Shown in pieces: positions 20,826 through 41,095 of a stretch of 64,000 nt of DNA. The notes beneath the pieces are model-generated. The model was not told where the DNA came from. It worked only from the letters and a program-made list of their open reading frames with translations, and made no database searches. Within the stretch, counting starts at the first letter, position 1, and each line of letters starts with the position of its first letter. Position numbers and translations under genes: made by a program. The stretch comes from an uncultured bacterium (lineage in GTDB: Bacteria > Babelota > Babeliae > Babelales > Vermiphilaceae). The stretch is from contig OY968764.1 in the NCBI GenBank assembly GCA_963695335.1, positions 480,001 to 544,000 of the forward strand, in the 5' to 3' direction.

Positions 20826-21026
20826 TTATAAAAATAAATGAGATCCCTTCTCTTGTTGTAGTTTTAAATTCTTCTAAACAATCTTTAATAATTTTAAACG
20901 AATTAGATGGCATGGGTTGTTGGGGAATGCTAGCATCTTTTATGTCAGCAATTAAGCGATACCAGCTGCGTTTATTGTAAGCACCAAACATGGTACGTAA
21001 TTCTCAGATGCTTATTGTTCCAATGC
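20826..21026 (-). pseudogene. 3' remnant of a rep gene homologous to 17277..18434
   Basis: MFGAYNKRSWYRLIADIK...SNSFKIIKDCLEEF versus MLGAHNKRSWYRLIADMK...SNSFKVIRDCLEKF; frameshift and stop upstream. Confidence 0.85.
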
Positions 21027-21289
21027 TATTTATGTTTTGCTTCAAGTTTTAATTGTAATCCCATGGCATTAATAATTGTACGAAAATCATGCCAACGTAG
21101 ATTCTTTTTAGAAAGCATTTTATAGATGTTTTGGTTGTCTACATTTTGTGCGTTAAGAACATGCTTTAAGGCAAGACGAATAGTTTCTTGATTTTCATCC
21201 ATAAGAGTAGCATTAAGGCATGCAAGTGCTTCTTCAGGATCTTGGAGTGCTTTGAGTAAACTTTCTTCGTGATCGATTGTTCTTTTCAT
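21026..21289 (-). CDS. Addiction-module antidote (HI1420-like) with an apparently shortened HTH
   Basis: LQDPEEALACLNA...LAL..V..AQ...QNIYKMLSKK...IINAMGLQL pattern. Confidence 0.7.
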   Translation of the reverse strand: MKRTIDHEESLLKALQDPEEALACLNATLMDENQETIRLALKHVLNAQNVDNQNIYKMLSKKNLRWHDFRTIINAMGLQLKLEAKHK

Positions 21290-21711
21290 TTTTCTTGTGT
21301 ATTTAAAGCATTATATTTTTGAAGAGCTAACTTTTTAATTTCTGCAATTTCATCTTCAGTAAAACGTTCTTTGAGATATCTTTGGAAAGTTTTTCTGTTC
21401 AGAGTTTTTTTTGCTATGACCATTTCAATAGCAGTGAGTTCAACTTCTTCTAAAATACCTCGATCTTTTAAAAAATCATCAAAGTTAGAGCCAATATACT
21501 TATTTTTTGTCATTATATTTTGTATCTTTTGTGATTGGATAATAGTTGGAGATACTTTTGCTATTTTTGCGAGTTTTTTTACTGATACATTATCTTTGGC
21601 TATAGCAGCAAGAATTAACTCGGATAATGCGAATATTCTATATTCTTCATTAAATTTTTTGCATTCTTCTGGACTCAATGATTCGATGAATGTATCAAAT
21701 GTTGATTTCAT
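21286..21711 (-). CDS. Chimeric protein of three antitoxin N-terminal segments
   Basis: aa 1-59 match 19072..19401; aa 67-101 carry IGSNFDDFL...GILEEV; aa 105-136 match the N-terminus of 21708..22013. Confidence 0.7.
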   Translation of the reverse strand: MKSTFDTFIESLSPEECKKFNEEYRIFALSELILAAIAKDNVSVKKLAKIAKVSPTIIQSQKIQNIMTKNKYIGSNFDDFLKDRGILEEVELTAIEMVIAKKTLNRKTFQRYLKERFTEDEIAEIKKLALQKYNALNTQEK

Positions 21712-22013
21712 TTTTTGAAGATATCTTTTGGCTCTTTATCCATAAGAGCTAGAAAGTGAGCAAAGCTTGCAAGTGTTAAGTTTGCTTGGCCACGTTGTAT
21801 TTTGGAGGCTTGAGATGGGCTTGTGGATAAGCGACGAACAACTTCGTTAAAACCAACCTTATTTTTTTTCATATATTCTGCCATAGTATCAGAAAGTATT
21901 TTTTGAATTGATCTGAGAATATCAACTTCAAGTTGTGCTTTGCGCTCAATTTCAGCAATTTGTTCTTTAGTGAGTCTTTTCTCTACGATGTCATAAAAGC
22001 TTTTTGTTTTCAT
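21708..22013 (-). CDS. XRE-HTH antitoxin
   Basis: ATG 22013 just after the toxin stop; GFNEVVRRLSTSPSQASKIQRGQANLTL HTH. Confidence 0.8.
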   Translation of the reverse strand: MKTKSFYDIVEKRLTKEQIAEIERKAQLEVDILRSIQKILSDTMAEYMKKNKVGFNEVVRRLSTSPSQASKIQRGQANLTLASFAHFLALMDKEPKDIFKK

Positions 22014-22014
22014 A

Positions 22015-22338
22015 TTATTTTTCCTCTGATAAGCGTTTATATGCAGTTTTAATATCTTTTTCCTGTGACTTTTTATCACCAGCAGCAAGTAGAATAATTA
22101 ATTGATTTTCCTTAAAGCAATAATATAGTCGGTATCCAAATTGTCGTTCACGTAATTCAAAGAGTCCTTTACCTAATGCACGACTATGAGGAAGTTTTAA
22201 TTCATTGCCTAATTTTTCTAACATGCGTAATTCTTGGGAGATAGATTCAAATTGTTCAATGGTTAACTTATAGATCCATTTTTCAAGGGGGCTTTTTCCG
22301 CTTTCATTAACCCAATATTCTATATTCCATTTTTTCAA
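22015..22338 (-). CDS. RelE/HigB (Gp49-like) toxin
   Basis: GKSPLEKW, LPHSRALGKGLFELR, YRLYYCF and LLAAGDK.SQ..DI..A; TTG start with AGGAG RBS. Confidence 0.88.
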   Translation of the reverse strand: MKKWNIEYWVNESGKSPLEKWIYKLTIEQFESISQELRMLEKLGNELKLPHSRALGKGLFELRERQFGYRLYYCFKENQLIILLAAGDKKSQEKDIKTAYKRLSEEK

Positions 22339-24090: not shown

Positions 24091-24124
24091 AATCCCTTTT
24101 TATGATAATTCATAAGAAGGGATT
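24091..24124. terminator. Repeated stem-loop ATCCCTTTTTATG.TAATTCATAA..AGGGAT, copy 1
   Basis: Hairpin with T-tail; four copies in the window. Confidence 0.75.
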
Positions 24125-27863: not shown

Positions 27864-30363
27864 ATGTTCAAATTGCGGTATCGGTATTTGATTTTTTTAC
27901 TTTTTTATCATTCCTTGCAAGCATTAACAACGCTTAATGTAACATTAGATTCAGACAATAATCCGGGTGGCAGGTGAGATTGGTGATTTGAGATATGCTT
28001 GAATACAATGAATCAAGGTCTTAACTCAATACCCGATGATTATGCGATTGTTTTTGACTTTCCAATGACGATTCAACTCAATGGAATCTTGCCGATTATT
28101 AACAATTCCTCAAATCCTGTGAATATCACCATTGGTAATACAGGCTCAACTCCTACCGTTACAATTGATGGTAATAGTGGTGCTTACAGTGGATTTTTTA
28201 TCCCAACGGGAAATGTGACGATTCAAAACATGATCTTTCAAAACCTGAGCGCACAAGGTGGTAATGGTGGAGACGGAATTTCAGGCGGTGGTGGTGGAAT
28301 GGGTGCTGGAGGGGCCATTTACGCACCTCAATTCTTTTTAAATGGCTCAAATCCTTCAATCACTTTGATGAATGTATTGATAAATGAATGTTCTGCTGTT
28401 GGTGGAAATGGAGGAAGTTATATAGGTCTTTCTTCCACTGGTAATGAAGGTGGCGGAGGTGGCGGAGGTTTTAGCGGAAATGGTGGTTCTATTACTACCA
28501 CGGGAAGCACTGGAGGGGGTGGCGGAGGTGGCTTTGGTGGAGATGGTGGAGATGTTACTCTTTCGACCGATGATTTGGGGGGCGGCGGAGGTGGTGGCGG
28601 TGGAATAGGATCCCGCGCTACCATAGGCACACTCACGAATCTGGGCAACGGAGGCTCGGATCAGAATATCGGTTTGGATGGAAATGGTTATGGTCTTTCA
28701 ATTACTGCTGGTTCAGGTGCCGGAGGGAATTCTGGAGGGAACATGGCAGGAGGAGGCGGTGGCGGCACCACGGGAGGTGGCGGAGGGGGAAGTAATGGAT
28801 CTGATGGGTTTCAACCGCAAGGTAGTTTAGCACCAGGAGGCAGTGCTGTACCTTCTGGAGGCAATGGAGGAGACGGCGGTGGAGGAGGCGGCGGTGGCGT
28901 TGTTGTAACATCGTTTACAAATGGAGTAGATGGACAAGCAGGTAGTGGTGGCTATGGCGGCGGCGGCGGTGGTGGGGCTGGTACGGGTGCTTATGATGCT
29001 TCTTATACAGTACAAGGTGGATCTGGTGGAGTTGGCGGAGGTGGCGGTGGCGGAGGAGTGAATCAATCCGGTACGACGCCTGCATGAGGTGGTAATTCTC
29101 TTGGTGGAGGTGGCGGCGCAGGTGGTGGACCATCTAATGGTATCACTGCTTGGGTGGAAATGATATAGGAAATCTTGGTGGAGGATCAGGAGGAATGGGC
29201 GCAAATAACTATGGAGCAGGTTTTGGTGGTGGAGGCGGTGGCGGAGGAAGTGGTCTGGGCGGAGCTATATTTGTGGATAGCGGTTTGAATTTCACCATAC
29301 AAGCATTCTCTGGAATTCCAACCACGTTCAATACACCAAATAATACAACACAAGCAGGAACTCATGGAACTGGTGGCCCTGGAGCTCAAGATGGTCTAGA
29401 TGGATCAGCACTTGGGAATAGTATTTTCCTGCGCTCTGGATCTTCTTTAACATTCATGGCGCAAGATGTTGATGATCTTTTAACACTTGGTGATCAAGTT
29501 GCGTTTATTGATGATACAAGTTTTGGTGGGCAAGGAACGAGTGTCTTTGTAGGAGGAAATGGAACTGTTATTTACAATGGAACAACAGATTATCCAGGAA
29601 CCATTACTATCAACAATGCGAATTTCAAAGTGAATGGGTTGATCGATGCAGCATCTATTTTTGTCTGTAGAAACATTGGTTTTAGTGCGCAAAGAGGTAC
29701 TCTCAGTGGGAGTGGAACATTAACTGGAAATGTTTTTGTAAATTCCGGAACAATCTCTCCAGATACAGGGCAAGCACTCACGCTTGGAAGTTTGACTCTC
29801 AATTCAGCAGATCCAATTAACAACACTCTTGGAAGCCTTGTGCATATTGAAATTGATGCAAACAGAGGCACATCTTTATTGATGTTACCGGGCCTGCATC
29901 ATTAGCGGGTACATTAGAAATTGAATTAGACCCAAATGCTCAGCCTGGAACGTATACTATTCTGAATTCATCTGGTATTACAGGAACCTTTGATACCGTT
30001 ACATTTACAGGAACAGTTCCTAATTATACGCTTTCTTATCTGCCAGTTGGAAATCCTACCTTTGTGCAATTTGATTTCTTAGGTTACCCAAACCCTAATC
30101 CTTTGCATAAAAAGAAGTTCCGCGAAACGCTTGCAGCGTATCATCAAGCATATCTGTTTGAAAAGGTTGTTGCAGCTATTGGAAAACATGAAAATAAAGA
30201 TGAAAAACGTTTACGTAAAAAAGAAGCAAAACGGTTGGAACATTATAAGCAGCTTCATCCTTATAGTCACTATGTAAAAAAGCATTTCAAATGGCTCAAG
30301 AAGTTTAAGCATAAAGAAGTTCCGCATATTGTTCACTTGATTAAAAAAGGTGAAGCGGCATAA
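27864..30363 (+). pseudogene. Degraded glycine-rich autotransporter-passenger/adhesin-like gene
   Basis: Signal peptide from ATG 27864; frameshifts near 27970-28000, 29150 and 29870; in-frame TGA at 29085; GGAIY/GGAIF motifs and beta-helix-like tail. Confidence 0.75.
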
Positions 30364-30372
30364 GTTTCGTTG

Positions 30373-30434
30373 TTATATTTTGTTGAGATAAAAGATCCCT
30401 TTTTATGGTAATTCATAAAGAGGGATCTTTTTTA
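30373..30434. repeat. Repeated stem-loop copy 2; left direct repeat of the toxin operon
   Basis: TTATATTTTGTTGAGATAAAAGATCCCTTTTTATGGTAATTCATAAAGAGGGATCTTTTT, closely matching 39900-39960. Confidence 0.8.
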
Positions 30435-30435
30435 A

Positions 30436-31659
30436 CTAATTTTTTGTTTCAATAATAGATTCGTCATTTTTATATTGATTGATTCTTATAAGAAATTTTT
30501 CTATTGCTTGTGTGAATAATTCTGAAGATTTTTTTGATAATGGTTCACCATTAACAATACTGTAGACTTTGCTTTGGATTTCATCAAGAATGCTATTAAT
30601 AAGCGTGATGCTAGATATAAATTCAGTACTATTACATGGTTTTTTTATAATATTAAGAGCTTCGTATACGCGTGATGTTATCTCTGAAGTAATATTTAGA
30701 TTACATAATTTTGCATTATAAAAGACATAAGAAGCCAATGTATTAAATTCATGAGACTGAGATGCATCATATTGCTGATTGCTAAGTATTATTATTATGG
30801 CTTCTTGTACACCAAAGGAGTCAAAACGACTAATGAGATTTTTGTGGTCTAATCGTCCTTTATAGAGATTATGAGCAAGCTCAATGATATCACAATTAAA
30901 GTTTTTTATAAGGAAGTTTTTTTGTGCGATAGGATCAGTAATATTGTTAGATGTAAGATATTCACTTATTTGTTTTTTAAGATGAATGAGTTCTGCATAA
31001 GCTATAGGTAAGCTTTTATGTTGTATGATAGATAAGATATTTTTTAAATCATTGGAAAATATAGATTCGTATTGTGTCATATCAATATGATCGTTGCGTG
31101 ATATATAACAATCATGAGCAGTTTGACGTACATCAAAACCATATTGTTTAATAACCCATTCTTTGATTTTAGCACCCTGAATAATATTTTTTTCTCGTGT
31201 TTGTTTTAATAATTTATACTTTAAACTTTCTAATTCTTTTGATGCTTTTTCAAGAGGGGCATGGGCGATGTGATGCAACATAGTAGTTATAGGATCAAGA
31301 TAAATTTTTTCTACTATAGCAAGGCATATCTTATCTCTAAGTTTATTTTTGTTGAGTGTTTTGCGAGTGCGGGGATATAAACGGTTGATTTTATTTAAAA
31401 GAGCATCAATATCACCTTTTTGCTGTAAAAGTATGCATTGTTCTTTATATTCCTGAATCTTCTTGCGTGATTTTGCACTCGTATGATTATCGATGTAATC
31501 TTGGCCTGTTATATCAATTATGAAGGCAGTTTCTGCTTCAATAAAGCTTTGCCACTCATCATCATTACGACCATTAGCTAAATTAGGGATGGAAACAATT
31601 GATAATGAAATGCTAGTAAAATAAATAAGAGATAAGAAATTTTGACGAAAGTATGACAT
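30436..31659 (-). CDS. Secreted paralog of the toxin central region, lacking a toxin domain
   Basis: YKEQCILLQQKGDI, CLAI.EK...DPIT and YGFDV...A..CY.SR are shared with the split toxin. Confidence 0.8.
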   Translation of the reverse strand: MSYFRQNFLSLIYFTSISLSIVSIPNLANGRNDDEWQSFIEAETAFIIDITGQDYIDNHTSAKSRKKIQEYKEQCILLQQKGDIDALLNKINRLYPRTRKTLNKNKLRDKICLAIVEKIYLDPITTMLHHIAHAPLEKASKELESLKYKLLKQTREKNIIQGAKIKEWVIKQYGFDVRQTAHDCYISRNDHIDMTQYESIFSNDLKNILSIIQHKSLPIAYAELIHLKKQISEYLTSNNITDPIAQKNFLIKNFNCDIIELAHNLYKGRLDHKNLISRFDSFGVQEAIIIILSNQQYDASQSHEFNTLASYVFYNAKLCNLNITSEITSRVYEALNIIKKPCNSTEFISSITLINSILDEIQSKVYSIVNGEPLSKKSSELFTQAIEKFLIRINQYKNDESIIETKN

Positions 31660-31697
31660 GTGATTGTTCCAAAAAAATAATAATGAAGTAGTTTGGT

Positions 31698-32075
31698 TTA
31701 ATTTTTTGTTTCTATAATAAATTGATCATTTTCATGCTTGATGATTACTTCTTTGGGTTTTAGCTTACACACTTTTTCTTCCCAATCAGTAATAATTTGC
31801 ACATATTGTTTGCGAGTCATTTTTAACAAAGTTGGAATTTCTTCTTCAGAATACAAATCAGAAAGCAATATGTAATTGCCGTCTTTTTCTAATGCAGTAA
31901 GATTACCGTTGGTTGAATAACCCCAATCATCGTTAAAACCCCATTCTTTAAAAGAAGAAGGATGATAACCAACATCTGTTGCTAAAAAATGTCCCAAAAT
32001 AGTCATTTTTTCATTTGAGGCATCTTCATAACGATAATGTCCACTAGTAGAAATAGTTAATTTAATAAATTCCAT
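31698..32075 (-). CDS. Putative immunity protein of the EndoU toxin
   Basis: 125-aa ORF whose ATG directly follows the toxin TAA; no signal peptide. Confidence 0.7.
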   Translation of the reverse strand: MEFIKLTISTSGHYRYEDASNEKMTILGHFLATDVGYHPSSFKEWGFNDDWGYSTNGNLTALEKDGNYILLSDLYSEEEIPTLLKMTRKQYVQIITDWEEKVCKLKPKEVIIKHENDQFIIETKN

Positions 32076-32803
32076 TTAAATCCTTGCTTCTACGATAGGA
32101 TAGGCTGTTGTGATTTGACCATTTTTGGTTATATACATTTCAATTTCTATGCCTTCGCTTGTAAAACCGCTAATTATATATTTTCCACCAGATTCTTTTT
32201 TGGCAATCGCTCCACTTTTTATAAAGTCGTCATATGCTTCACCTATTTTGCGAACTACTTCTTCACGTGACCAATGTTGAGGAAAAAACGTTTTATTGGG
32301 TATTCGTGAACCGTCTATCACTAAATCCGTAAGATAACATCCATTTTTTTCAATGCCTTTTTCTATAAATTGAACGGCACCACTATTTTTTACAGCACCC
32401 TTTAAATCATGGTGAAATCCTCCGATTCCCGACACTCTTCCTTTTTTAGACCATCCTAAACCTTCTAGAGTAAAAATATGCTCATATGGTAATTGGACTT
32501 TTTGATTTTTACACTCAGCAAAACCATATCTATGGTTACCAAAGACGTTTTTTAATGAATCTAATTCTTTTTTAAAGTTACCCAAGACATTAATTTTTTC
32601 ACTTTCTAGCAACGTTTTACTGCTATTGATGATAGCTTTTACACTGCCACTCTTATTCATATTGTGCATAGCATCAGACATTTTTATTGTAATGCCTTCG
32701 GCTGTCACTAAAATAGGATTGTCAGCCAGATGCGTATCAAAGCCTTTTTTGAATGTACGTGCTACAGCAGTAGTGGATTTGCCAAGTTTTTCTAATACAT
32801 CTA

Positions 32804-33781
32804 ACGTGAGTTCGATCTAAGAAAATTTTAAAAAAAAATTCATTACGATATCCTTTTAAAAACAATCAAACTTAAAAAAGGGTATTGTAATGAATTTGAC
32901 TACTATTTTCTACCATTGTGATGAATTTTGCAAATTTTTTGAAAAAGAGTTTCCAATCCGTGTTCTTTCTGATGGGAAAAATATTAGAAAAAGGAATGGA
33001 TCTTTAAAGCTTAGTGAAACTATGACGATTGTCATTTATTATCAGCAATCTGGCTATAAAACATTCAAGGATTATTACACAAAAAGTGATGAATTAAAAT
33101 CAGCGTTCCCTGGTCTTACAAGCTATAATCGTTTTGTAGAATTACAACAAAAAATTACAATGCCTTTAGCTATTTTTACAAAATTATATGCGCTTGGAAA
33201 ATGTGATGGCAATTCATACATTGACAGTTTTTCACTGTCTGTAAGTCATCAAAAAAGAATATCTTCTCATAAAACCTTTAAAGGATTAGCCGCTCGAGGA
33301 AAAACAAGTGTGGGTTGGTTTTACGGATTCAAAGTTCATGTAATTATCAATGGTTGGGGAGAAATTATTGATTTTTGTATCACCTCAGGAAATGTTGTTG
33401 ATAATAATACAAAAGTTATTGAAAAAATAACTGAAAAAATTCATGGAAAAGTTTATGGAGATAAAGGCTATTTGCTTAATTCAGAACTGTTTCAAAAGCT
33501 TTACTCTAAAGGCATTCATATTGTTACAAAAATTCGAAATAATATGAAAAATAAGCTTATGGATGTTAAAGATAAAATCATGTTAAAAAAACGTGGAATC
33601 ATTGAGTCTGTTGGAGCAATTCTTAAGGAGGATCTTAATATTGAACATTCACGATATCGTAGTCCAAGATCATTGATTATAAATGTATTTGCAGCTTTAG
33701 CTTCTTACGGATTTCGAAAAAAAAAGCCATCAATATACAAAAAAAGCTTTTTTCTATTGACGGCTTAGATCGAACTCACGT
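32804..33781 (+). mobile_element. IS982-family insertion sequence (978 bp)
   Basis: Perfect 18-bp inverted repeat ACGTGAGTTCGATCTAAG; 8-bp target duplication TACATCTA at 32796-32803 and 33782-33789. Confidence 0.95.
32890..33768 (+). CDS. IS982-family DDE transposase
   Basis: SYNRFVEL, YIDS, GWFYGFKVH, GDKGY and KRGIIES motifs. Confidence 0.93.
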   Translation: MNLTTIFYHCDEFCKFFEKEFPIRVLSDGKNIRKRNGSLKLSETMTIVIYYQQSGYKTFKDYYTKSDELKSAFPGLTSYNRFVELQQKITMPLAIFTKLYALGKCDGNSYIDSFSLSVSHQKRISSHKTFKGLAARGKTSVGWFYGFKVHVIINGWGEIIDFCITSGNVVDNNTKVIEKITEKIHGKVYGDKGYLLNSELFQKLYSKGIHIVTKIRNNMKNKLMDVKDKIMLKKRGIIESVGAILKEDLNIEHSRYRSPRSLIINVFAALASYGFRKKKPSIYKKSFFLLTA

Positions 33782-35033
33782 TACATCTATCTCTTTAAGA
33801 AAATTATAAGCGGCGCCAAGGCCTTCGCAGACCATAACATCCGCCATGAATTGGCCTATAAAAACAGCGTATTGATCACCGGTCACGTCTTGTAGCGGTT
33901 CCATTATTTCGCAGAAAACATCAATGCGTTGCTGATATTCTTCTGGAGATAAATATAATTTTCCAACGGTAAGGTCTGATGTAAAATGAGCGGTATTTAT
34001 TATCAGTTCAGTGAGTGTGTATGTTGTAGTGATGCCATTGTGCATTACAGCAATAGGATCATTCCATAGAGCAGCGCCTCCTTTTTTTAAAAGTGATCTG
34101 AGGTCGCAGGCAAGATGTCCCATGTTAGAAACTTGCGTAACTGGATTAAGTCCTTTGAAAAAAGCGCCAAATCCTTTCAATAATAGTTCCGATGATCGTT
34201 GTAATACTGGATGTGTGCCGCTCAAAATAGCATGTGCTAGTTGTTGCATGTCACCCAATGTACGACTAACCATTGAGAAATTAAAGATGAATGTAGGGTG
34301 ATCTTTTGCTGTTCTGATAGCATCTATGGAGTTATAAACGTGTAATTCTATTTTGAGCAAATTGCTGAAGTTACAAAGACGTGCATTACCAAATATATGT
34401 TGCGCAAGATCATTCATTTCATTGGCTACTGACTCATAACTATTATTATTCTCAAGAATTTTTACAGCAGCTTGATTCACATCAATAGCCATAAAAGATT
34501 CAGCAAGTTTTATATGATCCGTTCGTGCTTCATATGTTTTATGAGCAAGTCCAACAATGTTTTTGCCAAATGATTTTTTAATGTATTCTTTTTGTGCGGT
34601 GGGGGCAGTGAGATAACGTTCTTCAAAAACTTTATTTACTTGTTTATCAAGACGAACCAGTTCTGCGTGAGCAATTGGTAAATCTTTATGCTTTATGTTG
34701 TCGATAATTGCTCGCATAGTGTTTGCAGTGCGGGATTGTTTTTCTGGTGCAGCAATATAATCAGCTCGAGATACATAACAGTTTTGCGCAGCACTTAAAA
34801 CATCAAAACCGTAGTGATCAACAGTCCATTGTGTAATTTGATCGTTGTTGGTCAGATTTTTTTCTTGCGCTTGATTATGTATTTGTGTTTCAAGATTTAC
34901 CATTTCTGTAATAGCTCTTTCAAGTGACGGAGCACGCCGAATGGCAGCAAGTATCATAGTAATTGGATCATGCAAAGCTTTTTCTGTTATTGCAAGACAA
35001 GCATTAGCAGTAAAATCATATTTTTTATTGTTA

Positions 35034-35883
35034 GGTTCTGTTGAGTTTTTGAAAAGATAAGTTTTGAAGTATGATAACACCGAAAAAGCAAAAACCAAAT
35101 CACTAAAACGGTGCTATCATGAAAAAAGAGTATATCAGCGAAATGGCCTGGAGCAAAATTTTTAATTTTTTAAAACAGCAAAAAAACATTTATATAAAAG
35201 AAGAAAAGGACTGTAAAAAGTTTATAGAAGGGACATTTTGGATGGCAAGAACAGGAGCACAATGGAGAGAGTTGCCGGAAAAATATGGAAATTGGAATAG
35301 TGTGTTCAGCAGATTTAATGCTTGGTCAAAAAAACATATTTGGGAAAAATTACTCAGTTTTTGTGCAGAGGATCCCGATATGGAATATGTAATGATTGAT
35401 GCCACGATAGTCCGCGCACATGCCTGTTCTGCTGGATATGATCAATTTAAAAATGAAGGACTGGGAAGAAGTAAAGGTGGTTTTACAAGTAAGATACATG
35501 CAACAGTAGATGCTTTAGGCAATCCTTTAAGATTTGTTATTACTCCTGGTCAGCGTAATGATATTACTCAGGCTGATATTTTATTAAAAGATATTTCTGA
35601 ATCATATGTAATAGCGGATAAAGGATATGATTCCACTGAATTACGTTCGAAATTAATAGAAAAAAATTGTGTTCCCGTTATTCCTCCAAGATCCAATCGT
35701 AAAGAACAATATCAATATGATGAACATCTATATAAAGAGAGACATGCGATTGAATGCTTGTTTTCAAAGATAAAACACTTTAGAAGAGTGTTTGCTCGTT
35801 TTGATAAATCGGCACGAAATTTTTTATCTTTTCTTTCTTTTGTGGGAACTTGCATATGGTTACGATGAAAACTCAACAGAACC
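35034..35883 (+). mobile_element. IS5-family insertion sequence (850 bp)
   Basis: 16-bp inverted repeat GGTTCTGTTGAGTTTT; TA duplication at 35032-35033 and 35884-35885. Confidence 0.93.
35119..35868 (+). CDS. IS5-family transposase
   Basis: RTGAQWRELP..YG.W, IDATIVRAH, GRSKGG.TSKIH, ADKGYD and R..IE..F..IK.FRR motifs. Confidence 0.95.
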   Translation: MKKEYISEMAWSKIFNFLKQQKNIYIKEEKDCKKFIEGTFWMARTGAQWRELPEKYGNWNSVFSRFNAWSKKHIWEKLLSFCAEDPDMEYVMIDATIVRAHACSAGYDQFKNEGLGRSKGGFTSKIHATVDALGNPLRFVITPGQRNDITQADILLKDISESYVIADKGYDSTELRSKLIEKNCVPVIPPRSNRKEQYQYDEHLYKERHAIECLFSKIKHFRRVFARFDKSARNFLSFLSFVGTCIWLR

Positions 35884-37030
35884 TAGTAACGATGTCAAAA
35901 CATATATTTTTGCGTTGATTATAAAGAGTAGCAATATCACCTTTTTGTTGTAATAAAATGCATTTTTCTTTGTAATGTTGAATGGATTGTTGTTCTTGTT
36001 CAGTGGCATAGACAGCAATATAATCTTGACGAGAAAAAAGATCTTGTTCGGCGATCCTTATTATATCCTCTCCGATAATGGAATGTATAAATCTTTCTTC
36101 CATATAGTTGTAAAACAAGGGCACTAAAAATTGATATTCACGGTCATACGGGAATAAAGCGTGTAATGTATTAAGAGCTGCATAGGCAGTGCTCGGATCA
36201 GCATAAAGAATCTGCTCGAGTAATTGTGTTATTTCTCCAGATATTGATTTGTCGATAAAAATTATCTCTTTTGGAACAAATTTAAAATTTTTTCTCCCAA
36301 CAACATCTTTAGTGCGGCATTCTAAGGTGTTTTTTTTAAGGAGTTGTAATTGTTTTTGAACAGTAGGGAGTTTTAATGCAGTAATAATATCATTACTATT
36401 ATTAATTTTAAAATTAACAGTTATTGGACTTATAGCAGCAGAAGATATTTTTTTGTTATGTATTTGTCGGTTATATTCTCTTGCTATTTTGTCTAGTTTA
36501 GTTATTTCTAGATTGCTGAAATTTGTAGATTTGTTTTGTGCTATTTGATTTTCATATATTTCTTGTTTTCGTGTATCGTTAAGTTGATCTTCTGAAAACT
36601 TTTTTTTCCAATCATCATCATACGAAGATGTTGTTGAATTGGAGTTGTTATTATCTTGAGAAGGTGACTCTACAGATGTTGATTTTGCATCATCACGATA
36701 TACGTAGACATCTTCTCTCACTTCCACTTCGAGTGTCTCTTTATTTATACAAACCCCAGTATATGTATCATAATTGTCATGATTAGTAACAGACAATGCA
36801 TGAGTATGAGTAGTTTTATCACATGTATGTCCATTGGAAGACGAATTGCCAAGATCAAATGACTGGCGTCCAGTAGATGTAGTAGATTCGCTTGTTGAAG
36901 TAAATCCAGCATCCTCAACGTTCCAATCATTAAAGCCTACAATAGTAATTTTAGCATATGTTGTAGAGCATATAAGTAATGTAATGATTGCATGCGATAT
37001 GTGTTTTTTTATTGGTAATATCATAATTGT

Positions 37031-38386
37031 TTAGTGTGTTTTAAGGAGTGCATGAGAATATTGTATTAAAAATTTTGATTCTTTTATAAAGATAAGCACA
37101 TTTACTGCAACAGAAAGAGGTACGCCCCATTTCTTTATTTTTTCATATATTTTTTCTGTCATATTTTCTTGTAATACTTCTGCTTCATCGTGTAATTGAT
37201 TAAGCGCTTGCTGAAAGTGAGTGCGAGTTAACACAATAGGGACTTCAGTTTTGACACTGTCTTGTCCTGAATAGTAAAACATTTTTGCACTATCAATAAT
37301 CAGTTGCACATCGCGTAAAGAGCAATTTTGTATGTGCTGTAACATGTGAGTGATAAATTCATCAGTTACTGAATCATCAAGTGTGACTGATTGGTCATGC
37401 GTGATGCTATTGATAAAAGTTTGAATTTTTTGATTGTTATTAAGCAGTGGCATTTTAATAATTTTTCCAGAAAATCGGCTTTTTATTTCTGGTGGCAATT
37501 TAGTGACATCGTTTGCTGTGCCAATAATAATAATGTTAGGGTTTTCTTTTTCAATTTTATCTAAAGCAAGCCAAAATGCGGCAGCACTTTGGGAGTCATC
37601 TGATTGGCTATTGGTATGATGTTCAAACAATTTATGCAGTTCATCAATGATAATTACCTTGGGTAATCTATTTTGAGTATGTTCTTGTAGGCATTTTTCT
37701 ATATTATTAGATGTTTGATTTCTAAAATGGCCGAGTAATGAGGTTGCAGGAATAAATACTACTGGGTAGTTAAGCATATGTGCTATTGCGTATGCCAGTG
37801 TTGTTTTTCCTGTTCCTGGTTGCCCTACCAAAATAAATCGATGAAAAGAGGGTACAAGATCTATTTTGTGCGATGCATTTTTATTATGTTGAGATGATTG
37901 CAAATAAGTGAAAATTCCTTTTAATAAAGCAGGTGCATTATCTATTGAAGATTCTAAAAGCCATTGTGGTATTTTTATTGGTAGTGGTTCTATTGAATGA
38001 GGTTGTTTTGAATTTTGAGTTGAGAGCTGTTCTTGCTCCAGTGGTTTTGCTTTTTCAAAAAAATCTGGATAGCGGTCTTTAAGAATAGCATAACCTTCTG
38101 GTCCAGTGCCAATGTAAGTAAATGTTAATATAACTTTTCCTTCGATAGCCATTTTATCTTGTAATACTACATTTCTTTCGACGTGTCTTTTTTCTGGTCG
38201 GGATTGTTCTGTCTGTGTAATAACTGGAATTTCATCTTTGTATAAAGGCTTCAATGGAGGTAAATCATTTATAGATTTTTGAGAATCATTTTTGTTTGAA
38301 ATGGCAGGTTTTTTTAATGACTTAGGTTTACTGAATAATAAAGAACTTGAAGCAATAATAAGTGTTATAAATATAAATTTTTTCAT
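37031..38386 (-). CDS. AAA-family ATPase with N-terminal signal peptide
   Basis: GQPGTGKT, IIIDEL, IGTAN and IKSRF; start MKKFIFITLIIASSSLLFS overlaps the upstream stop (ATGA). Confidence 0.88.
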   Translation of the reverse strand: MKKFIFITLIIASSSLLFSKPKSLKKPAISNKNDSQKSINDLPPLKPLYKDEIPVITQTEQSRPEKRHVERNVVLQDKMAIEGKVILTFTYIGTGPEGYAILKDRYPDFFEKAKPLEQEQLSTQNSKQPHSIEPLPIKIPQWLLESSIDNAPALLKGIFTYLQSSQHNKNASHKIDLVPSFHRFILVGQPGTGKTTLAYAIAHMLNYPVVFIPATSLLGHFRNQTSNNIEKCLQEHTQNRLPKVIIIDELHKLFEHHTNSQSDDSQSAAAFWLALDKIEKENPNIIIIGTANDVTKLPPEIKSRFSGKIIKMPLLNNNQKIQTFINSITHDQSVTLDDSVTDEFITHMLQHIQNCSLRDVQLIIDSAKMFYYSGQDSVKTEVPIVLTRTHFQQALNQLHDEAEVLQENMTEKIYEKIKKWGVPLSVAVNVLIFIKESKFLIQYSHALLKTH

Positions 38387-39738
38387 TGTTTTGTCTTTCT
38401 TTGCCAAGGCCATTTTTTTCTTTCTTCTTCAGCTTCTTTTTCAATGATAGTTTCTTTTTCACGAGTTTTTTTCATCATGTCATTATAAAGTTTTTTTTGT
38501 TCATCTGAGATAAGAGAATATTCTTTTTTGATACCATCTTTATAATGGGTATAATGTAAGTTAAGACCACTTTTTACATCGTTACCTGTATATACATCGC
38601 TGTTTGGGTTTGCGGATGCTTGTATTATTTGTTGTTGAACAAAATGTATTTGTTGCATGTCCATATTTTCTTTGTGATGACGGTTTTGTCGTTCTTCATC
38701 AGTTTCTTCTTCAAGATTGTAATTTGACTCCATTTTTTGTCTTAGGTATTGATCGGTTGCATAAGTGATAGCAGCTTGTTTAATAATTAAAGGTGAGGAT
38801 GGGGTTGTTTGATTTATTTTGCTTGTTCTGCATATTACTTTTGAGATATTTTCTAAATCACGCCCAGAAGAATCTCCCATTTTTTCTACTTCTTGAATCA
38901 GAAAGTCATCAGTTACTTCTTTATCGAGCATGGTATGTGGGTTTGTTAAATAATCACGAAGAAATTGCATTTTAATTGTGGAATCGGTCATGAGTGGGAA
39001 TTTTATGCAATCAGGAAGAATTCTATTTTTGTATGGTTTGGGTAGTTTGTTGATACGATTCATAGTTCCAATAAAAAAGAAATCTTTGTTGCCACTTTGT
39101 TGATCAAGAAACATCCATAATGCTTTTGATGTTGCATCTGTATCATGATGTTTACTTTCACTGTTTTCTAGCAATAGATTGAGCTCATCAATAATCAAAA
39201 TGGTTGGTTTTTTTGAAGCTTTAATCGCATCAAGCTCTCTTTCAAGTCGCATAGCTGTGTGATTACGCTGTTCTCCGAGTAGAGAAGTACTTGATATAAT
39301 TTTATATTCCCAACCATGTTCAATCATTTTGTGTGCAATAGCTTTAGCCATTGTTGTTTTACCTGAACCAGGTTCGCCAACAAATATTGCTGATCGGTAA
39401 TCTTCATTAAGAGGGAAAAAAGTAGGGTTTTGTAAATGGTTAACAATGAACCGCGCTTCTTTTGGAGAAGATTTGAATACTAAGCTCATTTTTTTCATAT
39501 CGAGCTCAGTAAAAGCAAGTGATTGTGTAGCGGACAGAGTTGTTTCTTGTTGTTGCGGGTAATGGTGATGATGGTGTTGATGATAATGATTATGTTGTTG
39601 CGCGCTAAGAGCATTGTGGATTAGTTCTAATATATCTGATTCGTCGAATGGTTTTATAGGAGGAGGAGAATTGTCTACTGCTAATGAACTGTTAAAAAGA
39701 CACAATGATAGGAAAATAATTCCATAGTTATATGGCAT
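38383..39738 (-). CDS. AAA-family ATPase with N-terminal signal peptide and His/Gln tract
   Basis: GEPGSGKT, LIIDEL, IGTMN and KNRI; signal MPYNYGIIFLSLCLFNSSLA. Confidence 0.88.
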   Translation of the reverse strand: MPYNYGIIFLSLCLFNSSLAVDNSPPPIKPFDESDILELIHNALSAQQHNHYHQHHHHHYPQQQETTLSATQSLAFTELDMKKMSLVFKSSPKEARFIVNHLQNPTFFPLNEDYRSAIFVGEPGSGKTTMAKAIAHKMIEHGWEYKIISSTSLLGEQRNHTAMRLERELDAIKASKKPTILIIDELNLLLENSESKHHDTDATSKALWMFLDQQSGNKDFFFIGTMNRINKLPKPYKNRILPDCIKFPLMTDSTIKMQFLRDYLTNPHTMLDKEVTDDFLIQEVEKMGDSSGRDLENISKVICRTSKINQTTPSSPLIIKQAAITYATDQYLRQKMESNYNLEEETDEERQNRHHKENMDMQQIHFVQQQIIQASANPNSDVYTGNDVKSGLNLHYTHYKDGIKKEYSLISDEQKKLYNDMMKKTREKETIIEKEAEEERKKWPWQRKTKQ

Positions 39739-39899: not shown

Positions 39900-39960
39900 T
39901 TATATTGTGTTGAAATAAAAAAATCTCTTTTTATGGTAATTCATAAAGAGGGATTTTTTA
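39900..39960. repeat. Repeated stem-loop copy 3; right direct repeat, overlapping the rarA stop
   Basis: Matches 30373-30434; supplies the last codons KNPSL* of rarA. Confidence 0.8.
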
Positions 39961-41095
39961 AATATTTTTTACCTTTAATCTTTTCAGGTAATAAATCATC
40001 CGTTGTATATTTTTGGTAATTTTTCCCATACCCCAACTCTTTCATTAATGGCGTAGGTGCATTGCGGATATTCATAGGAATAGGTAAATTACCAAACTGT
40101 TTAACATCAGAAGTTGCGGCAAGATATGCATAATATGAAGATCTATCTTTTTGAGCTTGAGATAAATAACAAACACCGTGAGCTAAATTAATGGCACATT
40201 CTGGATAGCCGATAATTTCCACTGCTCTGAAAACATTATTTGCTATTGTTAACGCATAAGGATCTGCTAATCCAATATCTTCTGAAGCAAAGATAACCAT
40301 ACGTCTTGCGATAAATTTAGGATCTTCTCCCGCTTCTATCATTCGTGTTAAATAATATAATGCTGCATCAGGCTGGCTAGCACGCATTGATTTTATAAAA
40401 GCAGAGATAGTATTGTAATGTTCCTCTGCTTTTTTATCATAGCGTAAAAAACTGTTCTGTATTGTATTTTGAAGATTTTCTAGGGTAATTTTTTTATAGA
40501 GTGCGTACGTGTTTTCAATGACGTTTAATGCTTGGCGCGCATCACCATTTGCCATTGAAGTAATCCAATCTGAAGCCTCTTCATTTATTGCAATATCTGT
40601 TCGTTGAATAATCTGTTTCATGTCATCAGCAGATAATTCTTTTAAGACAAAAACGCGACATCGTGAAAGAAGCGCTGGTATAACTTCAAAGCTGGGATTC
40701 TCTGTTGTTGCGCCAATAAGAATCAATTCTCCTGATTCAACATATGGTAATAAAAAATCTTGTTGTGCTTTAGTAAACCGATGTATTTCATCCAAAAACA
40801 GTACTTTTATACTAGTATCGTTTTTTTTGATAATTTGCTTAATATCATCTTTTCCAGCCGATACAGCTGAAAATTCATAAAAAGAGGCTTGGATAGCGTT
40901 GGCATATATTCGGGCCAATGTGGTTTTTCCAACACCTGGAGGACCCCATAAAATAAAGCTAAAAATATGTTGTTTTTCAATAGCTATGCGTAAAGGTTTT
41001 TCTGGACCAACTAAATGGTGTTGGCCAATAAATTCATCCAAAGATAAGGGTCTGATTTTTGTAGCCAAAGGCTCATGAAAGTGATTTTTTGCCAT
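39941..41095 (-). CDS. rarA: Replication-associated recombination protein A (RarA/MgsA)
   Basis: PLA..IRP..L....[34 protein letters not shown] and [10 protein letters not shown]. Confidence 0.95.

Follow-up and report, generated by a model that had tools for sequence, protein, structure and literature searches.

Bacterial AAA motors normally operate in the cytoplasm of the cell that produces them, and the ATPases of Photorhabdus virulence cassettes (PVC) and type VI secretion systems (T6SS) are cytoplasmic as well. ATP-driven threading of cargo at a membrane is known from extraction by p97/Cdc48 and from the Plasmodium translocon of exported proteins (PTEX), whose motor HSP101 is an AAA+ protein exported by an intracellular parasite. 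Here we analyze an operon from an uncultured member of the Dependentiae (GTDB lineage Babelota; Babeliae; Babelales; Vermiphilaceae), located in a 64,000-nucleotide stretch of contig OY968764.1 (assembly GCA_963695335.1, positions 480,001 to 544,000; referred to as the window), in which two AAA ATPases with signal-like N-termini (AAA1 and AAA2) precede a toxin gene with an EndoU nuclease tip, a putative immunity gene, and a tipless paralogue of the toxin. The surrounding genome is a single contig of 1.37 Mb with a guanine-plus-cytosine (GC) content of 35.7%. Unlike p97/Cdc48 and PTEX, these ATPases contain just one AAA domain, lack the N and D2 domains of Cdc48, and have no recognized channel partner, and their proposed cargo is a polymorphic toxin.

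Several described systems share part of this arrangement. The Neisseria MafA-MafB-MafI system resembles the locus in its signal peptide, lineage-restricted stalk, cognate small downstream gene, and orphan cassettes, as well as in its variable nuclease tips (EndoU, Ntox21, Ntox35, Ntox17, and colicin E3-type) and conserved exported upstream accessory (PMC3482391). In contrast to the lipoprotein MafA, the upstream accessory here is an AAA protein that is catalytically intact as judged by its motifs, and the toxin comes from a bacterium that parasitizes protist cells from within; MafB-N (DUF1020) had no Pfam match in 12 intact toxin homologues. Babela massiliensis, of the same phylum, encodes AAA-Ulp1 fusions with the AAA domain behind a predicted signal peptide and proposed action in the host cytoplasm (PMC4378268), whereas our ATPases have no peptidase match and are tied to toxin-immunity pairs. 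AAA+ proteins are also encoded with toxins in PVC and other extracellular contractile injection systems (eCIS; CDC48-related ATPase) and in T6SS (ClpV), and the ATPase is CDC48-like both in PVC and here (PMC3482391), but those ATPases serve an injection apparatus, whereas here both ATPase and toxin have signal-like N-termini. VipB and Phage_sheath_1 were not found in the 94% complete genome, in which positive controls were detected, and CdiB/ShlB had no match in a search whose control matched nowhere either. Legionella effectors such as AnkB end in a CaaX box, and their prenylation by the host is documented (PMC2916131, PMC5506055); here the CaaX box occurs on only part of the AAA family, where host anchoring is putative, and the proposed export is Sec based rather than through Dot/Icm.

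The five units of the operon are co-oriented on the minus strand, and their junctions (a 4-bp ATGA overlap, then 6 bp, 0 bp, and 38 bp) measured exactly as claimed by an earlier model interpretation of the letters alone, hereinafter the sequence-only reading. Our preferred interpretation, which we consider quite possible while stopping short of calling it probable, is that an exported AAA unfoldase moves its partner toxin across host membranes in the protist host. ATPase and toxin would cross the inner membrane by Sec and exit by type II secretion or in vesicles, and rings of the ATPase would form only once it meets ATP in the host cytosol. The ATPase might dock on a membrane through its tail, by host prenylation of a CaaX box or by an aromatic/basic tail, then engage the helical-repeat stalk and thread the partner toxin, which would be either freed from the producer's compartment or fed toward that of a rival. 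The membrane crossed would be host derived, and the direction would be toward co-infecting bacteria, with AAA1 as the core motor and AAA2 as an optional duplicate. The victims may include other Dependentiae because of the immunity genes and the orphan immunity gene arrays. We are more doubtful of the fuller proposition, namely, an undescribed delivery route in which the bacterium exports its own p97-like motor, host-prenylated or otherwise anchored on vacuolar membranes, and uses host ATP to thread polymorphic toxins that kill rival endosymbionts in the same protist. Members of the phylum are described as Gram-negative bacteria that parasitize protists from inside the cell and have the Sec and type II secretion pathways; in Chromulinavorax, 44% of the proteins have a signal peptide (PMC4378268, PMC6561590, PMC4776705); the present genome encodes two secretins and two ATP/ADP translocases.

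The presumed cargo belongs to a family with exchangeable ends. Pfam identified the tip as EndoU_bacteria (E = 1e-13), bearing out the earlier assignment, and there were also no Pfam matches to RHS, filamentous haemagglutinin, LXG, PAAR, or MuF features, which that reading had likewise not recognized, in the three window pieces and the 12 intact homologues, the stalk being predicted to be helical. The middle piece of the toxin, used as a query, found matches in 11 of 201 genomes. The 12 intact homologues (884 to 1,062 amino acids) follow a common plan of signal-like start, variable region, two to three helical repeats of ~100 residues, helical pre-toxin region, and TAEG-type motif, after which they diverge; eight have a Pfam EndoU match, one of them on an orphan-type tip. 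Tips of 31 homologues were sorted into 8 groups, and the small gene 3' of the toxin switches together with the tip. A search of 1.84 billion representatives gave 90 relatives of the repeat stalk; 61 of these are long, with a signal-like start in 50 and tips falling into 23 groups; a Pfam tip was present in 14 of 55 scanned stalk relatives (EndoU, 6; Ntox21, 5; Ntox35, 1; Ntox17, 1; Hint domain, 1). Because a single stalk is combined with many tips, and each tip with a small downstream gene of its own, the locus, as predicted from its genes, fits the genomic definition of a polymorphic toxin. Orphan tip/immunity cassettes lie downstream in G005 (L030), G061 (L038), G093 (L095), and G004 (L105), and matches to CdiI_N, CdiI_ImmP, and DUF2247 are present in loci picked by their AAA gene.

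Fold comparison placed the tip but assigned no fold to the stalk, which does not make the stalk fold a new one. The toxin model had a predicted local distance difference test (pLDDT) score of 62, and Foldseek returned nothing for it at E ≤ 0.001. A wide fold search matched the stalk to generic helical bundles only and the tip to the EndoU toxin of a contact-dependent inhibition (CDI) system, 5hkq (Z = 7.9; root mean square deviation, 3.2; 117 aligned). The ESM Atlas held no usable match for the repeat stalk, and the pre-toxin part gave weak leads to MafB (0.87, feature level) and PT-TG, all under 0.9. EndoU matches occur in 91 of 261 Dependentiae genomes, apparently a large, undescribed set of polymorphic toxins; the domains are mostly C-terminal on long signal-bearing proteins, with a small gene following them. 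Two EndoU toxins of G255 (L191 and L196) have the family's pre-toxin region with neither repeat stalk nor upstream AAA.

The order AAA-toxin-immunity with variable tips, which the sequence-only reading had set as a test, is conserved among relatives. Toxins picked by their stalk had a signal-bearing AAA directly upstream in 14 of 16 cases (four genera, most from one). For the AAA-picked set, 60 new regions around family matches gave 53 informative units, and the controls were 316 signal-bearing genes, taken from this genome and from 20 stretches chosen at random in relatives. The pattern of a long signal-bearing gene immediately followed by a small one downstream (a crude toxin-pair rule, which overlooked at least one EndoU locus) was found at 24 of the 53 AAA units versus 6 of the 316 controls, and the loci concerned span 20 of 28 genomes, 13 of 18 genera, and 4 families. 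Long genes downstream of an AAA had a Pfam toxin tip in 8 of 37 cases and were clearly something else in 4, and the tips of 42 AAA-adjacent cargoes formed 17 groups, with the long neighbor at L124, on the opposite strand, excluded from cargo counts. Of 45 AAA-adjacent cargoes, 20 have the repeat stalk (12 of these 20 seeded the profile), versus none of 59 EndoU-picked toxins. All 18 of the 261 genomes with the stalk also have the ATPase, and a new stalk match (G144:C2) has upstream a signal-bearing AAA that ends in a CaaX box. A metagenome scan yielded 80 loci, of which 8 contained members of the ATPase family and the remainder weak generic AAA matches; of three loci with enough downstream DNA, two read AAA-AAA-toxin-small gene in full, and in the third a stalk gene follows an AAA. 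Complex prediction for AAA1 and the toxin stalk (G006 pair) scored 0.17 versus a mark of 0.32, which counts neither for nor against a contact between them. A second locus of the same genome, L042:6529-11943 (64.5 to 69.9 kb), contains a signal-bearing AAA, a 727-amino-acid toxin-like gene with a different N-terminus, a 109-amino-acid gene, a paralogue (67%) of the EndoU immunity gene, and an AAA-like gene whose Walker A motif is degenerate.

A number of observations weigh against the proposed exported motor. The ATPase predicts the toxin, but the toxin does not predict the ATPase, because the 24 of 53 AAA-picked units stand against about 14 of 68 long EndoU toxins that adjoin an AAA; the latter figure combines 3 of 56 newly fetched long toxins with a co-oriented family AAA within two genes and 12 earlier toxins (11 with an AAA), and it leaves out 10 listed long matches and 68 weaker ones. 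Three of five toxin-like loci of this genome lack an adjacent AAA, the toxin-pair rule did not hold for 29 of the 53 AAA units, some of which lie ahead of ankyrin, Sel1, or housekeeping genes, and two stalk-bearing toxins have no adjacent AAA. A profile of a second N-terminal region matched 11 AAA-side and 38 AAA-free toxins. Since kin are not independent and all 18 stalk genomes belong to one family, shared descent or a co-inherited mobile cassette could explain the linkage. No channel gene was recognized in the AAA-toxin loci. In the window itself, AAA1 has Gln at the pore-loop position where most relatives are aromatic and lacks a CaaX box, and the toxin locus is disabled by insertion sequence (IS) elements. 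Signal-likeness was scored by a hydropathy and charge heuristic rather than by SignalP. Finally, many loci carry a single ATPase, so that the heteromeric pair that the sequence-only reading had envisaged is not required.

Three formulations were rejected: the AAA as a general route for all Dependentiae toxins (most lack an adjacent AAA), an obligate AAA1-AAA2 heteromer (single-AAA loci), and a division of the toxins into two exclusive N-terminal classes (the second profile matches both AAA-side and AAA-free toxins). The three AAA-free loci of this genome are signal-bearing and toxin/immunity-like and lie outside the window, near 787060, 811528, and 1261565 of G000.

The strongest competitor, which we judge unlikely though worth serious weight, is that the ATPases act on the host as effectors in their own right, as p97-like remodelers comparable to the secreted AAA-Ulp1 fusions of Babela, and share a mobile, co-expressed cassette with the toxin while leaving it untouched. 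The roughly half of AAAs with no toxin pair downstream, the fusion of some AAAs to ankyrin repeats, and the many toxins without an adjacent AAA all favor it, and Babela has been proposed to secrete AAA effectors (PMC4378268). Against it stands the tight translational coupling of AAA genes directly upstream of toxins, which is seen with toxin N-termini of several unrelated kinds, in more than one AAA subclade, and at separate places on the chromosome; the repeat stalk, too, is seldom seen without an AAA.

The C-termini of the ATPases indicate where they might act. Cys at position -4 was found in 14 of 80 AAA members versus 12 of 672 secreted-type controls, and in the AAA members with this Cys the end mostly reads as a CaaX box; in the set nearest window AAA1, only 7 of 108 had this Cys. 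That set more often has Trp in the last eight residues (35 of 108 versus 53 of 545 controls), in tails that are Trp rich and often basic. The CaaX-type tails support an association with host-cytosol membranes. Of the earlier proposal that the ATPases work outside the cell, the location thus gains support from the CaaX-type and Trp/Lys tails, which suit the eukaryotic cytosol, whereas the translocase role stays conjectural. The same tails bear on the improbable alternative that the ATPase enters the victim (a rival bacterium, the host cytosol, or a mitochondrion) along with the toxin and there unfolds, releases, or activates the tip: ATP is present in every cytoplasm, the motor motifs are intact, and the conserved TAEG-type motif before the tip resembles a processing site, but a CaaX tail would be useless inside a bacterium, and no import route into bacteria is evident for a 45-kDa ATPase. 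CaaX-like ends were also seen on small, mostly signal-bearing Dependentiae proteins (L089:5809-6716, L108:4499-5317, and L138:2278-2592), which suggests a wider use of host prenylation in the phylum.

Both window ATPases match Pfam AAA (E = 1e-19 and 7e-27), and the Walker A and B, sensor-1, and Arg finger motifs claimed for them are all present. Over 81 members, the Walker A Lys is conserved in 80, the Walker B Glu in 76, the sensor-1 Asn in 76, and the Arg finger in 79; the pore-loop residue is aromatic in 60. Their nearest solved relatives by sequence and by fold (model pLDDT, 89) are VAT and p97/Cdc48, although they have only a single AAA domain, without the Cdc48-type N domain and tandem D1-D2, and score far under the TIGR01243 cutoff. 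They belong to the classic AAA clade, for which hydrolysis, ring formation, and unfolding are putative here. AAA1 and AAA2 are sister clades (support, 0.95); AAA2 was never seen without an AAA1 in its operon except at a contig end, whereas AAA1 is frequently alone. The family occurs in 48 of 261 genomes at E ≤ 1e-20, and close database homologues are named from "Candidatus Babeliales"; the divergent AAA of L172 groups outside it. No peptidase Pfam match was found in the window pair and 11 further members, among which a permuted domain could escape Pfam, and the window ATPases have little space left for a fused peptidase domain. It is quite unlikely that these proteins, like MafA, serve in the periplasm or on the surface as adaptors that accompany or anchor the toxin independently of ATP hydrolysis. 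The operon logic recalls mafA-mafB-mafI (PMC3482391) and AAA2 ends in a moderately hydrophobic helix, but near-invariant catalytic residues in 81 divergent members, purifying selection on the AAA2 core (nonsynonymous divergence [dN], 0.12; synonymous divergence [dS], 0.91), and CaaX tails speak against an adaptor.

At the other end of the proteins, the Sec-like signal peptides attributed to both ATPases and the toxin were recovered, by the heuristic, as short hydrophobic signal-like N-termini. A hydrophobic N-terminal stretch was present in 95 of 108 database AAA homologues, and it was hydrophobic enough to resemble an anchor in 11 by the same measure. Among 80 genome-derived members, which had been prefiltered for such a stretch, the net charge ahead of it was positive in 73 and negative in none, and only 8 were hydrophobic enough for a 19-residue anchor. 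The sequence-only reading would have given way had the N-termini been membrane anchors that leave the ATPases cytoplasmic; heuristically, they resemble cleavable positive-inside signals instead. By the established positive-inside rule, an N-terminus oriented in this way would carry the ATPase domain out of the cytoplasm whether it is cleaved or acts as an anchor. That the N-termini do not serve export, and that the ATPases are cytoplasmic chaperones keeping the toxin unfolded for secretion, is the least credible alternative: it answers the ATP problem simply and the signal calls are heuristic, but divergent members retain short positive-inside hydrophobic N-termini and host-type tails are enriched.

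The toxin gene of this genome is not the single intact gene that had been described, as two IS elements overlooked at that stage, one of the IS5 family and one that we take to be of the IS982 family from its DDE_Tnp_1_3 match, cut it into three pieces (Table 1). These align to residues 1 to 359, 361 to 776, and 775 to 1005 of an intact 1,009-amino-acid relative. Copies of each element are 99.9 to 100% identical within the genome (n = 6 and n = 4, respectively), and the insertions are therefore recent. Since the gene is interrupted by both elements, the toxin is probably inactive here; the genes for AAA1, AAA2, the immunity protein, and the tipless paralogue are unbroken. Among sequencing runs, none of RNA was listed as containing this sequence, and four shallow DNA runs contained no joint across either IS, at a depth too low to be informative.

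Table 1. Features of the operon and its flanks, in window coordinates
Feature	Coordinates	Strand	Description
AAA1	38383..39738	-	451 aa; signal-like start, one AAA domain of the classic clade, helical extension at the C-terminus, tail rich in Trp and Lys
AAA2	37031..38386	-	451 aa; signal-like start, one AAA domain, C-terminal helix of moderate hydrophobicity; AAA1 sister clade
Toxin 5' piece	35886..37024	-	Signal-like N-terminus, variable region, first helical repeat; stops at IS5-family element
IS5-family insertion sequence	35032..35885	+	Transposase 35119-35868, 18-bp inverted repeats, 6 identical genomic copies
Toxin middle piece	33783..35031	-	Helical repeats and pre-toxin helical region
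IS982-family insertion sequence (presumed)	about 32803..33782	+	Transposase 32890-33768; 4 near-identical genomic copies
Toxin 3' piece	32076..32802	-	TAEG motif and EndoU nuclease tip
Putative immunity protein	31698..32075	-	125 aa, no Pfam match; homologues sit after EndoU tips and are swapped when the tip changes
Tipless paralogue	30436..31659	-	407 aa; signal-like N-terminus and helical repeats
Direct repeat, left copy	30373..30438	.	~70 nt, palindromic core, flanks operon
Direct repeat, right copy	39900..39964	.	88% identical to left copy

The last gene of the operon is a paralogue of the toxin (36% over 285 amino acids), as had been proposed. G160 has an orthologue in the same position with the same stop point (dN, 0.28; dS, 0.62); the gene was found only in that genome and in G000 (this genome), with shorter forms in G006 and G260. 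It appears to be kept but optional, because it is absent from most loci, and for the same reason it was rejected as a core component; our guess is that it is a decoy or an adaptor. The 3' ends of the tipless gene (30437 to 30484, its last 16 codons) and of the immunity gene (31699 to 31746) are 79% identical, which suggests local recombination.

We found no paper on a link between exported AAA proteins and toxins, or on polymorphic toxins in Dependentiae, in a literature coverage that extended to papers outside subscription; in PMC12172432, the words toxin, secretion, and ATPase do not occur, and signal-bearing AAA-Ulp1 fusions had been noted earlier in Babela (PMC4378268). An exported, host-ATP-powered motor for toxin handling would, if true, be a new way of transporting proteins across membranes. 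Dependentiae, described with only Sec and type II secretion for export, carry many polymorphic toxins, which implies interbacterial warfare in protist hosts. The ATPase and toxin parts are small and soluble, so that binding, unfolding, and localization are accessible with intact homologues.

The ~70-nucleotide repeat that flanks the operon may mark the insertion site of a cassette or may be a mobile palindrome; further hairpin copies lie near 24092 and 42958, and all four genomic copies found are inside the window. Elsewhere in the window, a GC-rich (47%), glycine-rich gene in two open reading frames (ORFs) occupies 27999 to 29905; it has no Pfam match and presumably resembles a broken autotransporter-like adhesin. 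Small toxin-antitoxin-like ORFs, of RelE/HTH type as judged by eye, are clustered at 21026 to 22338.

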